From NCBI GenBank assembly GCA_001872605.1, contig MNXM01000153.1, forward strand, positions 5,100-69,099: 64,000 nucleotides of DNA. The letters are read 5' to 3'. This document shows positions 5,248 through 54,973 of the stretch, piece after piece; within the stretch, counting starts at the first letter, position 1; each line of letters begins with the position of its first letter. The translations under genes and the position numbers were made by a program. This stretch comes from Armatimonadetes bacterium CG2_30_59_28. GTDB lineage: Bacteria > Armatimonadota > Abditibacteriia > CG2-30-59-28. The notes beneath the pieces were generated by a model that saw only the letters and a program-made list of their open reading frames with translations, was not told where the DNA came from and ran no database searches.

Positions 5248-5618
5248 AGCATTCCTCTTTAGGAACGATCTGCGGTTCACTCGCGGCAGTGACGCTGGTT
5301 TTGTCCGGCTGTTCTCAGGGCTTTGAGGGTGCTCGCAACAGCCCTCCTTCTCCTCCCGTAACGCAAGCTGAGTCGGCCCTCGGAGACTCGCCATCTCCTG
5401 ATAGCGAACCCGCAACGGCGCCTGTTGTTGATCCCAGGTTGCGGATCCTGATGTCGAAGATAAACCTCAGAGCAACCGTTCAGGTGTCGACAGGAACGCC
5501 CCCAGTTTCACACTGGGGGGCTCTGCACTCAACTGAACGATTACACCTCCGATACATCAACATGATAAAGAACCGGGACGAGACGGGTGTAAGTAAGATT
5601 TGTGATGCGTGGTGGTAA
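5244..5618 (+). pseudogene. Putative lipoprotein interrupted by a MITE at 5585
   Basis: Lipobox VLSGC and ATGA overlap with namZ; the last 11 codons and the stop lie inside the MITE. Confidence 0.55.
5540..5568 (-). promoter_or_regulatory. Sigma-70-like promoter (TTATCA-N17-TGTAAT), antisense, 16 bp from the MITE end
   Basis: Reverse complement of 5563-5568 is TTATCA and of 5540-5545 is TGTAAT; 17-nt spacer. Confidence 0.4.
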
Positions 5619-5881
5619 TCAGCCCCCTGGGGCCGGGCAGGCATAAACGAAAGGTTGGGGAAACCTACGCGAGTGAACGGGGACAGTAACAACCCCCATC
5701 CGGTCTTCGACCACCTTCCCCTGTGCGAACCGTTTTGGTTCGATAACGGGGGAAGGTGCGAACCCTTTGGGTTCGAGGATGGGGGTTGTTGCATGAGCTC
5801 ACTCAGGACCGACGAACCGCGAACTGCGTTACACAATCACTGTCGGCTTCCAGACTATAGGCGCCTATGGTTCCGGCTGGG
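5585..5881 (+). mobile_element. MITE family A, copy 1 (one TIR lost)
   Basis: Begins GGGTGTAAGTAAGATTTGTGA; collinear with the reverse complement of 50939-51225 up to ...CCGGCTGGG, then the distal TIR is missing. Confidence 0.85.
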
Positions 5882-11079: not shown

Positions 11080-11255
11080 GGGTGTCAGTCAGATTTGTGA
11101 GAATCCACCCCAGCCGGAACCATAGGCGCCTGTAGCCTGAAACCCGACAGTGATTGTGTAACGCAGTTCGCGGTTCGTCGGTCCTGAGTGAGTTCATGCC
11201 TGGCCGACCCCAGGGCGCTGATTACCTCCGCGCGTCACAAATCTGACTTGCACCC
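11080..11255 (+). mobile_element. MITE family A, copy 3 (176 bp, palindromic core deleted)
   Basis: TIRs GGGTGTCAGTCAGATTTGTGA and TCACAAATCTGACTTGCACCC; flanks TCTGCGGCC/TCTGCTGCT (degenerate 9-bp duplication, 7/9). Confidence 0.88.
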
Positions 11256-34944: not shown

Positions 34945-34999
34945 TACATTCGTTGCTCCCTTCGCTGGAGGCAGTTGTCACGCCGCAATGATAGCACAT

Positions 35000-35016
35000 C
35001 AAATCTGACTTGCACC
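35000..35016. mobile_element. Isolated TIR stub of MITE family A
   Basis: CAAATCTGACTTGCACC, identical to 17 nt of the family A terminus. Confidence 0.55.
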
Positions 35017-35175
35017 AAGCCAGCAGACTTGCATCTCCGACGTGCCGTATGAGACAATCCACCAGTGCTTCGCCGGTAACTGGGTGTTGTTGCCGAACTC
35101 GCGAAATTCGGGCGGACAGGCGCAACGACAATCAGGTGGTGATGCTCGCTATCCCGGGACAAAAGGAATTACCGT

Positions 35176-50242: not shown

Positions 50243-50421
50243 GGCGTCGCTCCTTCGTTCTCAATGCATCATACGGGGGATTCGAATTGCCAGACCATCC
50301 CCTCAGGGACATATCCTGAAGGAAAGCTGCGTGGGCCGCCGCCTGCGGTATGCGCACGAAGTGCGGTGGGATAGTGTCTATTTATCGTTCATCCCCTGCG
50401 CAAATCGTTGCAGGTTCTGGA

Positions 50422-50862
50422 TTAGACGGTTTGAGGAGGGGCGCGAAGGCGCCTGGGTTGTTTAGTGTTGGATTGCAGGAGTAAATTGGGATGTTGAGCA
50501 AGTGCGAGCGCGGGCCCTATTTGGGGGACGATGAGAATGGGCCCGGGGACGTGTGCGCCGACGCTATCGTTCGTCCGTTCACATACGCGCTTCTCGGGAA
50601 GGGGATAGCACTCGTCGAGAGGGGCCCGGGGGGAAGCCTTCAGGGCGCAACCGCAATCTTTCCCTGGGGAGGCGGCGGAGTCGCAACAGCAAGAGCCACC
50701 GGATCCCGAACTCGGGCAACGCACTGAGACGGCGCGTAATTGCCCATTTTCCCTTGGGCAGCAGAGGCGCATCGGCGCAATTACTGCCACCGATGCCACC
50801 CACACCAGCAGCAGAAGCAACGCCGTTTGCGCCCTGATTCTACAATTGCCTTGCAGGTTCAT
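50422..50862 (-). CDS. Cys-rich exported leader protein ending in RAPP (DUF2946/CutF/CruR-like arrest peptide candidate)
   Basis: Hydrophobic signal-like segment, 11 Cys (CC, CCC, CGC), C-terminus RRLRAPPQTV*; GGAG RBS; first ORF after the promoter. Confidence 0.72.
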   Translation of the reverse strand: MNLQGNCRIRAQTALLLLLVWVASVAVIAPMRLCCPRENGQLRAVSVRCPSSGSGGSCCCDSAASPGKDCGCALKASPRAPLDECYPLPEKRVCERTNDSVGAHVPGPILIVPQIGPALALAQHPNLLLQSNTKQPRRLRAPPQTV

Positions 50863-50893
50863 TCTGTTTTCTCTCCGAGTGACTTCCGACCAT

Positions 50894-50922
50894 AGTATGC
50901 GCTATGAATGCTCAACTGTCAA
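50894..50922 (-). promoter_or_regulatory. Sigma-70 promoter of the metal island (TTGACA-N17-CATACT)
   Basis: TGTCAA at 50917-50922, AGTATG at 50894-50899; alternative -10 TACTAT at 19-nt spacing. Confidence 0.7.
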
Positions 50923-50938
50923 GCGCCACAAAACATCC

Positions 50939-51225
50939 GGGTGCAAGTCAGATTTGTGAGAATCCACCCCAGCCGGAACCATAGGCGCCTATAATTTCGA
51001 AACCGACAGTGATTGTGTAACGGAGTTCGCGGTTTGTCGGTCCTGAGTGAGTTCATGCAACAACCCCCATCCTCGAACCCTTTGGGTTCGCGAACCCTTT
51101 GGGTTCGAGGATGGGGGTTGTTACTGTCCCCTTTCACTCGCGTAAGTCTTTCCAACCTCTCGTTTACGCCTGCCCGGCCCCAGGGAGCTGATTGCCACCA
51201 CGCATCACAAATCTTACTTACACCC
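50939..51225 (-). mobile_element. MITE family A, copy 2 (complete, 287 bp)
   Basis: TIRs GGGTGCAAGTCAGATTTGTGA / TCACAAATCTTACTTACACCC; flanks AAAACATCC/GAAACATCC; central nested palindrome. Confidence 0.92.
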
Positions 51226-51234
51226 GAAACATCC

Positions 51235-51315
51235 GGGTGCAAGTCAGACTGGTGGCAGCCGACATTCCCGTAAGGGCGTTTCGCGGTGGGCGCGTCGGCC
51301 TGCCCGGCCAGGGAG
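51235..51315. mobile_element. Older diverged family A-related MITE remnant abutting copy 2
   Basis: Starts GGGTGCAAGTCAGA right after the duplicated target; contains CCTGCCCGGCCAGGGAG similar to the family A internal motif. Confidence 0.6.
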
Positions 51316-51339
51316 ACCGTCCCCCATACAAGGCATCTT

Positions 51340-54300
51340 TCACTCCACTGCCGCCATATCATTGGTGACGACGATACGACCCAGCCGGGCGTCCTTCGAC
51401 AACTCGTCCAATGTCAGTTCATGGCGGCCTGCGGTGAGTTTGAGGACGGCTACCCGAACCCACGCCCATGTGCCGGCGGATCCCTCCAAGTCGCCGACCG
51501 ACTTGCCATCAACCTTAAGGATGGCGAGTTGCCCTTTTCCTGCGGCGCGAACCCAGATCGCGAAGCCACCTTCGTGGGGAATGTCTATTGTCCACGTCGC
51601 GCTTCCAGGTCCGCGGAGATATTCGCGCTGAGGGGGGCGTCCGTTCGAAGCAAGTGACGCGCCGGCGGCCAGCGTTGCCTGCTGCACATCCCCGCGGAGA
51701 TACGCGCCACTGTCTTCCGTGGATTCTGTTACGCGAGACAGAGACACATCATCGAGGTACAGTTCCGCCTCCACCGCCTCGCGTGAGTTCGTGTTGAGTG
51801 CGAGGTAGTTCCCTGTATTCCATTCGGGGATAGTCCCGTCCGCAGACAGTTTCTGCCAGGCGCCCATGCGATTCAGGTCGTAGGCATTGGTAATCTGTCC
51901 GCCGCGTGAGCCGTGAACGTCTCGGTAGGTGACACGCAGCGATGGCGCTGGGGTGCCGGGGCTGAGCTTGTCAACTCGCAGCCAACAGGTGAGACGGTAG
52001 TTCACTTCGGGTTTCAGCCACGTGATCTCCGTCGGGTCCCCGCCAGTATCGTAGCGTGTGTTGAAGTATTCGTTTTGTCCCCTCAACCGGCCGCGCCACA
52101 TGAGGGATGCCGCGCCGGAATGCTTCACATTCGTCGTGCGAACCATCTCCCCGCCGCGCGGCGTCCATCCGGCGATATCTTCTTCAAAGTCCGGGTTGGG
52201 GACATTGGTGGGCAGCAAGCGACGCGCGGGGTTCTTTAACTCAGCCTGAATTTTCGCGAGGTACGTGGCGAAAGGACTGCCGGGCAGTCTTGCGAATTGA
52301 TCCAGTCCCTGCACCAGCGAGCAGAGAGAATAGGCGCTGTGTTTTCCCACACCGCCGATCGTTTGCCAGGAAGCCGCGAGGGACTGCCGGAGAATCTGGT
52401 TGATTTCTTCGTTCTTCATCCGTTGAGCGCCGAAGGCAAGCCCTTCCAGCATGATGGCGATGGAAGCCGGCCCCGCTCCCGATTCCGGGCAAGAGGTGTA
52501 GTGGAAACCCATTACGTCCGGTTCCCACATAGTATCGATGATGAACTTTGCGATGCCGGTGATGGCTTCCGCGGCTTGCGGGTCGCGGGTGGCATCGTAG
52601 TACATCTTCAGCCCCGTCATCAGAACGCCCAGCATAAAACCCGCTTCGCCGAAGTGTTTCTTTTCACAGTTGCAGTGGCCGGTTGGCAGTTCATGATAGT
52701 AGAAACCGCGACCTCCGGTGGCCGCTGACTTCTCCTGCACCTTCCGCATCATCAGACGCGCTGCGTTAAGGTAGTACGGATCCCGCGTCGCGTTGTAGGC
52801 GCCCATGACGAGAATGGTCATCCAGCCTGGCTCGCGGGCGTTGCCGAAGTCGAAGTTGGTCGTCTGCGGTCCGGCAGCCCAGTCGGAAATCAGCTTCGCC
52901 GTCTCCCAGGATCGTCGGTCGCCTCCGAAGAGGAAGTGCTCGCAAAGTCCCTGTGCCCAGATGTGTCCTCGATTATCCGACCACCCGGTACCGGCGTATC
53001 CTTTCATGTCCTTATACTTGTTGTCGTAGTAGCCCGCGGTGTGACCGATGGAGTGAATCCACTGCTGGCCGACGCGACGATCGTCGGTGGCGTGGTGACG
53101 CGTGTCCACGTCGCCTTCGTGGAGGGCCGCCTCTGCGGCGCGGTGGAAGAACACCGCGTCTCCCGTTCGAGCGAACTGGGTCAGCATGGCGTGGGCCATG
53201 TCGTATTCCAGATTGCCCCAGTTCCATGCGCGTTCGCCGTACCAGTCGCCGAAGTTCATTATTCCGTATTCACGCTGAGCGGCGCGTCTCCCGAGCACGT
53301 TCTCGGCTGTCGCTTTCAGCGCCTCGTCATAGCCGGGGAATTGATCCCGCGCGGCCACCGCCAACCCACGCAATGCGCCGGTCTTCTCGATGTAGTCCGG
53401 CGGACAGGAAGCCACCGGCGGGTCGCCAACAAGTGAGTCTGCCTCTGGCAATGAGGCTGGTGCCAACCACAGCGTGTGCGTCTTGCTGAATCCCTGCCGG
53501 AAAGCGTAGTTGCCGTCGCGCAGATGGAAGTAGAGCTTGTCTTCATCGAGCCGACCTGCGTAGAAACCCGCGGGCAATGCCGGACAAATCCCAAGCGCCA
53601 ATCCTTCCCCGGTGGCGCCCACGGACTTCGGATACTGCTCCCAGCAGTGGCGCACAAGCAGCCGCGCCCCGCCGCACTTGACCCCGCCGGCGAGACGCTT
53701 TCCCTTCCCAGTGCCCGGTTCCACCACCCATTCGCTGTCTTCCCTCTGGATGACCCGCTGCCCCGTGGTCAGTGTCAGCGGCGCTCCGTCGGTGAAGACT
53801 GTTGGTTGACCGATCAGTCCATCGAAGCGCAGATCAAGCTGACGGAAGGAGGTCATCTCCTGCGTCGTGATGTCATTGGCAAACGTGTAGTCGCAACGAA
53901 GGTAGGGCTTCCCCGCAAACGCGTACCACCGCATCACGTATCCGAAGTGGGACTTGCCATCCGTTGACCGGTGGTGCCCGTCGATGCGAACAACGGTCCG
54001 GATTGGGCCCTGCTCCTCCACGACCACAGATTCTGGTGTGGCGGAATAAGTGACGCCGTCTCCGGCAATGAGCGCGGCGCGCGGCAGTGGCATGTCCTGT
54101 GTTCCGAGTCGAACGATTCCTGTCCCGTCCGTCCGCCCTTCGATGGAAGCCGATGCGCCAATAACCCGAAACGACTTACCTTCAACCTTCACCGTCGCGT
54201 GAGGCGTGGGTGATGTTGGGCGGACTTGCCGCCCGTACTCAAGGGTAACCTTGCTGTCTAACTTGGGGGCAAGGAAGGAGACCCGCAACCAACAGATGCT

Positions 54301-54894
54301 GCCATCATCGTAGCGGGAAACCACTTCCGGCTGGAACGACAATGCCCCCCCATCGCTCACCAACCGGAGCGCCTGCGCAGAGAAGACAACACCACGAGCG
54401 AAGGGAACACCGACGACCACGGGAGGAGAATCCAGCTTCCATTCGCAACGATCGATCTGGAGCGGAATTCTGCCCGAGGCAGTCGCAGCGAGGAGAGTCG
54501 TTCGCGGCAGTGAAACGCTGCCCGTCTCCGTGGTCACTTCTTTCCCGGCCGCGTCGGTGGCGTGGACGCGGTAGTAAAACGGTTTGCCTGCCTGCCAGGG
54601 AACGTCAGCCCGATGGTTATTGGCAAAGCCGCGGCCTGATTCGCGCGCATTAGTTGAGCCGCGCAGCGAGGAGGAGTCTTCCTCAACGCGTTCGCCCAGC
54701 GTCGGCGCGGCGCCATATTCCACCCACCCCTTGCTGGGCACGCGGGTGGTCCACCGTACCTGCGCAATGGGGCCGGTTCCTGTCTCGATGGCCCTTGTTG
54801 CAAGATCATCGACAGTCCAGTCCTGGGCTTCGCAGATCGGCGAACCGCCGGACAAAAGCAGCAAAACTACCAACACTCCTGATCGGGTATGCAT
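51340..54894 (-). CDS. Large secreted multidomain protein: Fn3-like + PcRGLX/YetA-like lyase/hydrolase core + CBM-like domains
   Basis: Signal peptide; VRWTT...WVEYG; VVVGVPFARG; EEQGPIRTVVRIDG; YGIMNFGDW...WGNLEYD; NPDFEEDIAGW; C-terminal GRHELTL. Confidence 0.65.
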   Translation of the reverse strand: MHTRSGVLVVLLLLSGGSPICEAQDWTVDDLATRAIETGTGPIAQVRWTTRVPSKGWVEYGAAPTLGERVEEDSSSLRGSTNARESGRGFANNHRADVPWQAGKPFYYRVHATDAAGKEVTTETGSVSLPRTTLLAATASGRIPLQIDRCEWKLDSPPVVVGVPFARGVVFSAQALRLVSDGGALSFQPEVVSRYDDGSICWLRVSFLAPKLDSKVTLEYGRQVRPTSPTPHATVKVEGKSFRVIGASASIEGRTDGTGIVRLGTQDMPLPRAALIAGDGVTYSATPESVVVEEQGPIRTVVRIDGHHRSTDGKSHFGYVMRWYAFAGKPYLRCDYTFANDITTQEMTSFRQLDLRFDGLIGQPTVFTDGAPLTLTTGQRVIQREDSEWVVEPGTGKGKRLAGGVKCGGARLLVRHCWEQYPKSVGATGEGLALGICPALPAGFYAGRLDEDKLYFHLRDGNYAFRQGFSKTHTLWLAPASLPEADSLVGDPPVASCPPDYIEKTGALRGLAVAARDQFPGYDEALKATAENVLGRRAAQREYGIMNFGDWYGERAWNWGNLEYDMAHAMLTQFARTGDAVFFHRAAEAALHEGDVDTRHHATDDRRVGQQWIHSIGHTAGYYDNKYKDMKGYAGTGWSDNRGHIWAQGLCEHFLFGGDRRSWETAKLISDWAAGPQTTNFDFGNAREPGWMTILVMGAYNATRDPYYLNAARLMMRKVQEKSAATGGRGFYYHELPTGHCNCEKKHFGEAGFMLGVLMTGLKMYYDATRDPQAAEAITGIAKFIIDTMWEPDVMGFHYTSCPESGAGPASIAIMLEGLAFGAQRMKNEEINQILRQSLAASWQTIGGVGKHSAYSLCSLVQGLDQFARLPGSPFATYLAKIQAELKNPARRLLPTNVPNPDFEEDIAGWTPRGGEMVRTTNVKHSGAASLMWRGRLRGQNEYFNTRYDTGGDPTEITWLKPEVNYRLTCWLRVDKLSPGTPAPSLRVTYRDVHGSRGGQITNAYDLNRMGAWQKLSADGTIPEWNTGNYLALNTNSREAVEAELYLDDVSLSRVTESTEDSGAYLRGDVQQATLAAGASLASNGRPPQREYLRGPGSATWTIDIPHEGGFAIWVRAAGKGQLAILKVDGKSVGDLEGSAGTWAWVRVAVLKLTAGRHELTLDELSKDARLGRIVVTNDMAAVE

Positions 54895-54973
54895 CGCCCG
54901 CAAGCCTCCCGTTTTTTTCTCAAGTTCATGGAGTTGCTTGTTCGTTACACTCTCCGGTGGGAAACTCGGCTGT

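Follow-up and report, generated by a model that had tools for sequence, protein, structure and literature searches.

This locus raises the question of whether a copper-island promoter was hit twice at the same nucleotide by copies of one MITE superfamily, as an earlier note on this DNA had claimed. In the window, the whole 64,000-nucleotide stretch that we analysed, a sigma-70-type promoter (TTGACA-17-CATACT; 50894..50922, minus strand; 10/12 matches, with 0.3 expected in shuffles) reads towards the copper island and a 146-aa ORF without a Pfam match (50422..50862, minus strand), which is the first ORF downstream of it. On the other side of the -35 hexamer, the sequence shows a 7-bp spacer (50923..50929), which is followed by the promoter-proximal copy of a duplicated 9-bp target site (AAAACATCC; 50930..50938), found both by reading the sequence and by a repeat scan. 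The repeat scan also delimited a complete 287-bp MITE of type A with ISKra4-like ends GGGTGC...CACCC (50939..51225, plus strand). Behind it lies the distal copy of the target (GAAACATCC; 51226..51234), which is identical to the proximal copy at 8/9 bases, and directly abutting this distal copy is a second, solo family terminus (51235..51255, plus strand), hereafter the stub, that begins with an exact GGGTGCAAGTCAGA and continues with CTGGTGG. A unique non-coding stretch with no demonstrable family homology (51256..51339) separates the stub from the upstream gene (51340..54903, minus strand; 1187 aa, with a PcRGLX-like beta-sandwich and CBM_4_9), the stop codon of which bounds the intergenic region.

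The complete MITE has inverted ends of 21-22 nt that are 91% complementary (GGGTGCAAGTCAGATTTGTGA and, on the opposite strand, GGGTGTAAGTAAGATTTGTGA). It contains a branched palindromic core (51059-51122) and no ORF of note, and an Rfam search with the core gave only sub-threshold hairpin look-alikes. Full-length copies on contigs C320 and C185 are 87-88% identical to it, and partial copies on contigs C302, C219 and C280 are 92-94% identical. From the -35 hexamer of the promoter (read from 50922 to 50894) to the end of the MITE is exactly 16 bp, and when we deleted the MITE and one copy of the duplication in silico, the older terminus came to lie 16 bp from the same -35 hexamer. The geometry described in the earlier note was thereby confirmed, as were the duplicated target on either side of the copy (9 bp, 8/9 identical) and the second family end at 51235, with its 14 exact bases and 18/21 agreement with the TIR consensus. 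We note that the 16-bp position of the older terminus after removal of the MITE follows from the fact that this terminus abuts the duplication, and is not an independent fact.

Together, the target copies and the termini beside them form an exact 22-bp direct repeat, AAACATCCGGGTGCAAGTCAGA, which we found at 50931-50952 and 51227-51248 by reading the region 50400-51900 and by the repeat scan. A repeat of this kind could be an assembly artefact, produced when reads are joined across repeated MITE ends; the source is a fragmented short-read Armatimonadota MAG (344 contigs, 5.5-Mb assembly), and 47 family ends lie at contig edges. An exact-flank scan, however, identified an independently assembled 4.2-kb metagenome contig, L009 (Ga0100390_10027361), in which all junctions are the same as in the window, and in which two SNPs relative to the window occur over ~2.7 kb, both in the flanks outside the stacked structure. 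Furthermore, assembly k-mers are usually longer than the 22 bp of this repeat, and the context of each junction is unique. We therefore regard an artefact, which the earlier note had named as a possible refutation, as extremely unlikely. L009 also diverges completely from the window inside the 1187-aa gene (L009:4110-4223, compared with the window from ~52695 onward), which would be explained either by strain variation or by chimerism at the end of the contig.

The earlier note had proposed that empty or single-insert alleles be sought in related genomes, and none came to light. A DNA search of 40 relatives identified no orthologous locus, the nearest genome being in another genus, and exact-flank scans returned the same structure in L009 as the one match among metagenome contigs and nothing among genome contigs. 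Among the 40 relatives and the scanned contigs we found no stub-only allele (the promoter followed after 16 bp by GGGTGCAAGTCAGACTGG...), no MITE-only allele (GAAACATCC running straight into CTGGTGGCAG, without GGGTGCAAGTCAGA) and no empty allele.

Comparison of the stub with the family TIR consensus placed all three mismatches in its inner seven bases. When we searched both strands of 51227-51450 with profile HMMs made from five family end types, only 51235-51255 matched. Neither a right end nor an interior of an older element was recovered by local alignment, by the five profile HMMs or by blastn against the genome; 51249-51339 had no homologue in the 5.5-Mb assembly (blastn, best E-value 0.32), and there was no third copy of the 9-bp target at the locus. 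The earlier note had also seen a diverged family motif at 51299-51315. The corresponding sequence, GCCTGCCCGGCCAGGGAG (51298-51315), aligned to the family with a local score of 29 and a 2-nt gap, and 30 shuffles reached 27; the match is thus not above chance, and we do not retain the motif. A lack of other family homologues for 51235-51315, which that note considered damaging to its own reading, was accordingly found beyond the terminus, but the terminus itself has homologues. Judged by these searches, the "older element" is a solo terminus of 14-21 nt, not recognisable as an element. Partnerless ends are common in this genome, making up 31 of the 111 ends whose partner could be sought, and approximately nine of them retain 32 nt or less; several partnerless stubs still lie 16 bp from a -35 (on contigs C163, C174 and C231). 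We also considered the MITE and the stub as one composite mobile unit and rejected this, as the pair lacks both a right end and a duplication around it, and its junction occurs only once.

Across the MAG we counted 158 ends and 43 complete elements of 71-436 bp, with several interior types. The elements are short, non-coding and multicopy, and they have inverted ends and target duplications, by which the family is one of bacterial MITEs. The 9-bp target duplication is perfect at 18 or more complete elements, as compared with 8/9 at the stack. Allowing at most one mismatch to TTGACA in the 153 unique outward flanks of the ends, we found the hexamer at an offset of exactly 16 in 35 flanks, with ~1 at any other offset and 0.6 expected by chance. 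A -10 with up to two mismatches at 16-18 bp spacing accompanied 18 of these 35, versus 5.3% of TTGACA-like sites genome-wide (P = 2e-14), and even flanks with a poor -35 were enriched for a -10 at the correct place (20/104; P = 5e-7). Fourteen empty sites that we reconstructed have the order -35, 7 bp, 9-bp target (7 + 9 = 16 bp), and two other MAGs had a -35 at +16 in 4/5 sites. Both end types of type A adjoin promoters (21/54 and 8/23). Type B has an orientation bias, with B-left adjoining a -35 in 8/13 cases and B-right in 1/15, in agreement with the published proposal that orientation is determined by how the two ends differ.

Promoter-directed targeting by this family is therefore true by virtue of the genome-wide counts and published work, and not by virtue of the stack. 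The earlier note had taken the stack as independent support for such targeting; it does contribute one data point, but the real support comes from the 35 flanks and from what has been published on ISKra4, ISLre2 and TnGBS, for which promoter targeting as such is already known (PMC3942029). By analogy with TnGBS, we infer that the transposase would read the promoter itself.

Within the window, elements with GGGTGYAAGTMAGATTTGTGA ends include those at 11080-11255, 5585-5878 and 50939-51225. On the far side of the copper island there is a further family end stub, TGGTGCAAGTCAGATTTGATG (34996-35017), whose outer end is directed towards the island and which lacks a -35 at 16 bp. Elsewhere in the MAG, five ends representing at least three independent sites (C2:134, C17:7158, C168:16132, C120:49277 and C279:75998) lie 16 bp from a TTGACA that is inside a REP-like repeat, GCCGTAGGATAAAGCTCCAGCTTTGTCAA. 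Since this repeat has no -10, the -35 hexamer by itself may be sufficient for targeting, without a functional promoter. At four short stubs (C174:12341, C27:6918, C247:5674 and C222:28480), the inner side meets an outward-reading promoter-like TTGACR within 0-20 bp, and the C174 stub lies between two divergent promoters, ~16 bp from each.

At C313:17775-18147 the left 138 nt of a type A element run straight into a complete type B element of 235 bp, with one perfect 9-bp duplication around both and a TTGACA-N18-TATACT promoter 16 bp away; the pair appears to be a composite that moved as one unit, and its junction is unique in the genome. The element at C249:2645-2869 lacks a target duplication and is bordered on each side by a -35-like hexamer at 16 bp; it is probably a recombinant of two copies at different promoters. 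The two flanks of C82:23242-23550 are perfect reverse complements over at least 45 nt, which reflects either an inverted duplication or a palindrome introduced in assembly. An exception to the 16-bp rule is C12:4738-4941, which has a perfect 9-bp duplication and lies 11 bp from a TTGACA-N17-TATAAT promoter.

For the stack itself, the most economical reading, although unproven, is that the promoter was hit twice, and we favor with moderate confidence the view that members of one MITE superfamily transposed into the same target position on two occasions. In such a history the transposase would set the end of the element 16 bp upstream of the -35, with a 9-bp staggered cut beginning 7 bp from the hexamer. 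A first copy would have landed at RAAACATCC upstream of the copper-island promoter, and would then have been reduced to its promoter-proximal terminus of 14-21 nt, as has happened to other copies in the genome. Neither the -35 hexamer nor the 7-bp spacer would have been altered, and with one 9-bp target copy also preserved the site would still be a valid target; the second, 287-bp copy could have entered the same 9 bp and duplicated them again, which would give the order promoter, 7 bp, X, MITE, X, stub. Because insertion spares the -35 and the adjacent 16 bp, a site of this kind can be struck again. The full MITE lies between promoter and stub, which is where it would be expected when the distance is measured from the promoter. 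We infer that the stub would descend from an independent earlier insertion, and that its truncation would have preceded the second insertion.

Two insertions need not both have been measured from the promoter, as the second could have been drawn by the resident terminus, i.e., by self-end targeting of the IS30 type. Exactly one duplication length does separate the new copy from the old terminus; this, however, is what the promoter-measured model predicts as well. Self-end targeting should also have left stacks at many of the 158 ends, including those not at promoters, but when we scanned the 80 nt outside every family end, allowing up to seven mismatches, no other end had one. The search for further head-to-tail stacks that the earlier note had suggested thus returned only the stack at 51235. 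As the 16-bp rule also holds at sites without a resident element, we consider attraction by the resident terminus very improbable.

A different history would involve a single insertion, with the stub being a local copy of the MITE's own left junction (the 9-bp target and the first 14 nt) that was mostly lost later. Such a copy could have come about by tandem duplication across the 9-bp repeats, through a tandem dimer or end-to-end junction of copy-out-paste-in transposition, as in Mutator-like elements, or by template switching during gap repair. The 14 nt of the stub are indeed the left-end variant of the adjacent MITE, which occurs in 20/156 other ends (12.8%), the repeat is exact over 22 bp, and homology ends abruptly past nt 14. 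The 9-bp spacer, moreover, has the form of a p-MULT circle junction, in which there are 6-10 bp of flank (PMC3942029). Short-read assembly would merge identical tandem copies into one, which makes the lack of other cases uninformative, and since tandem copies are invisible in this assembly, the prior for local duplication is hard to fix. A local copy, on the other hand, calls for a duplication followed by a deletion with its endpoint within the TIR. Both steps are rare, in contrast to insertion and truncation, which are frequent here. Past nt 14 the stub still matches the TIR at 4/7 positions (chance P = 0.07), and these include a T-to-G variant also present in other family copies, which suits an independently diverged end better than an unrelated flank; in addition, the two 9-bp target copies differ at one base. 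We therefore view a single insertion with a local junction copy as possible but rather doubtful.

Two hits at the same nucleotide, as the earlier note had proposed, hence stands as the best reading and fits the behavior of the family, with local duplication of the junction as the competing possibility. The rare 14-nt variant shared by the stub and the adjacent copy counts mildly against two hits and in favor of a local junction copy. The stack is also the only one in the genome, so that recurrence of the process cannot be shown. From ~49 promoter-side ends and ~2,363 promoter-like sites, the number of double hits expected by chance (n²/2N) is ~0.5; a single stack is therefore unremarkable and uninformative on promoter strength. 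We accordingly dropped the suggestion in the earlier note that the promoter is a strong one, and the stack says nothing on the strength or regulation of the copper-island promoter.

If the promoter was hit twice, the distal flank is dispensable, the target regenerates with each hit, and a resident end gives no protection. We raise as a tentative idea that occupied promoters remain full targets, with no target immunity, and that MITEs could pile up at them as head-to-tail arrays. If so, short-read assemblies would collapse or break the arrays (47/158 ends are at contig edges), and this locus would be visible as one case only because its older copy had been reduced to a stub; all target determinants would be on the promoter side of the cut, since the distal side at the second hit would have been transposon DNA. 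The locus is in this sense a natural experiment on a promoter-seeking transposon family, and a real but modest finding. The MITEs mark dozens of likely promoters and could aid promoter mapping in this genome.

The family has features in common with the ISKra4 group of the prokaryotic Mutator-like transposons, which have ends of 18-39 bp with a terminal C and 8-9-bp repeats (Guerillot et al. 2014; PMC3942029). Elements of TnGBS/ISLre2 and of the ISKra4 group insert such that their end is 13-17 bp (peak 16) away from a -35 box, and do so in either orientation where the two ends are near-perfect repeats. In the circular intermediates of p-MULT elements, 6-10 bp of flanking sequence lie between the ends, and the ISKra4-group ends tabulated in the supplement include some with GCACCC as their last bases and a DR of 9 (ISAcce1, ISCasp2). 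The family ends here are 5'-GGGTGC...GCACCC-3' (21-22-nt ends, GGGTGYAAGTMAGATTTGTGA ... CACCC), and the 9-bp repeats, terminal C, -35 at 16 bp and insertion in both orientations all agree with the group. We identified ISKra4-type transposase fragments on contigs C20, C296 and C236, none of which reached the model cut-off (E-values of 1e-12 to 3e-16), and on C318 a 457-aa ORF that matched transposase models weakly. The C236 fragment is part of a 502-bp ISKra4 remnant, the bounding ends of which match the MITE TIR at 17/21 positions and have a similar subterminal stretch. Neither this MAG nor the sister MAG G001 nor an Acidobacteria-labelled contig yielded an intact parent IS.

We also saw C-termini of IS1595-type transposases (C88:41-300, C158:31-300 and C343:7549-7884), two of them at contig starts, and the 20 nt around the stop codon of these IS1595 fragments, AGCTAAGTCAATAAGCATTT, are also present just inside some ISKra4-type ends (C228:13367 and C291:3777). 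The case for IS1595 as the parent is the weaker one, ISKra4 being favored by its known promoter targeting, the 9-bp repeat and the GCACCC termini. IS1 was rejected as a parent since it is absent from the genome, and the sole ISLre2-model match in the genome was weak (E-value 1.4e-5). On these sequence similarities we file the family as putative non-autonomous MITEs derived from an ISKra4-group (p-MULT 4) element, the direct parent of which we did not find in the MAGs and contig searched.

Compared with the ISKra4 group, the family has the same 9-bp repeats, ...GCACCC-3' ends, a -35 within the same 13-17 bp (here 16) and both orientations, but consists of non-coding derivatives of 71-436 bp with several interchangeable interiors. 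Its host phylum, Armatimonadota, is absent from the published list, and stacked copies at one promoter are not described in the main text of PMC3942029. TnGBS/ISLre2 elements likewise insert 15-17 bp (peak 16) upstream of a sigma-A -35, with 8-9-bp repeats, and form a circular intermediate whose ends are separated by flank-derived bases; unlike the family here, they have a single insertion orientation, in which the right end adjoins the promoter, are mostly from Firmicutes, and are autonomous, some of 1.1-52 kb. The tandem dimers and end-to-end junctions of IS256, IS30, IS911 and IS21 resemble the stack in having a right end, a short flank-derived spacer and a left end head to tail, but here no more than a 14-21-nt stub represents the second copy, and the spacer equals the target duplication, so that an ordinary second insertion explains the arrangement equally well. 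Ty3 and the Dictyostelium element TRE5-A integrate at specific positions upstream of Pol III genes, by way of TFIIIB/TFIIIC. They are like the family here in keeping a fixed distance from the transcription start apparatus, with a target that survives and can be hit repeatedly, and unlike it in being retroelements, with no shared homology or chemistry; an analogy to Ty3/TRE5-A-type targeting is drawn in PMC3942029 as well. Promoter targeting of the ISKra4 type has been published for autonomous elements of other phyla, and our results add an uncultured member of the Armatimonadota, in which it is a property of an abundant MITE superfamily.
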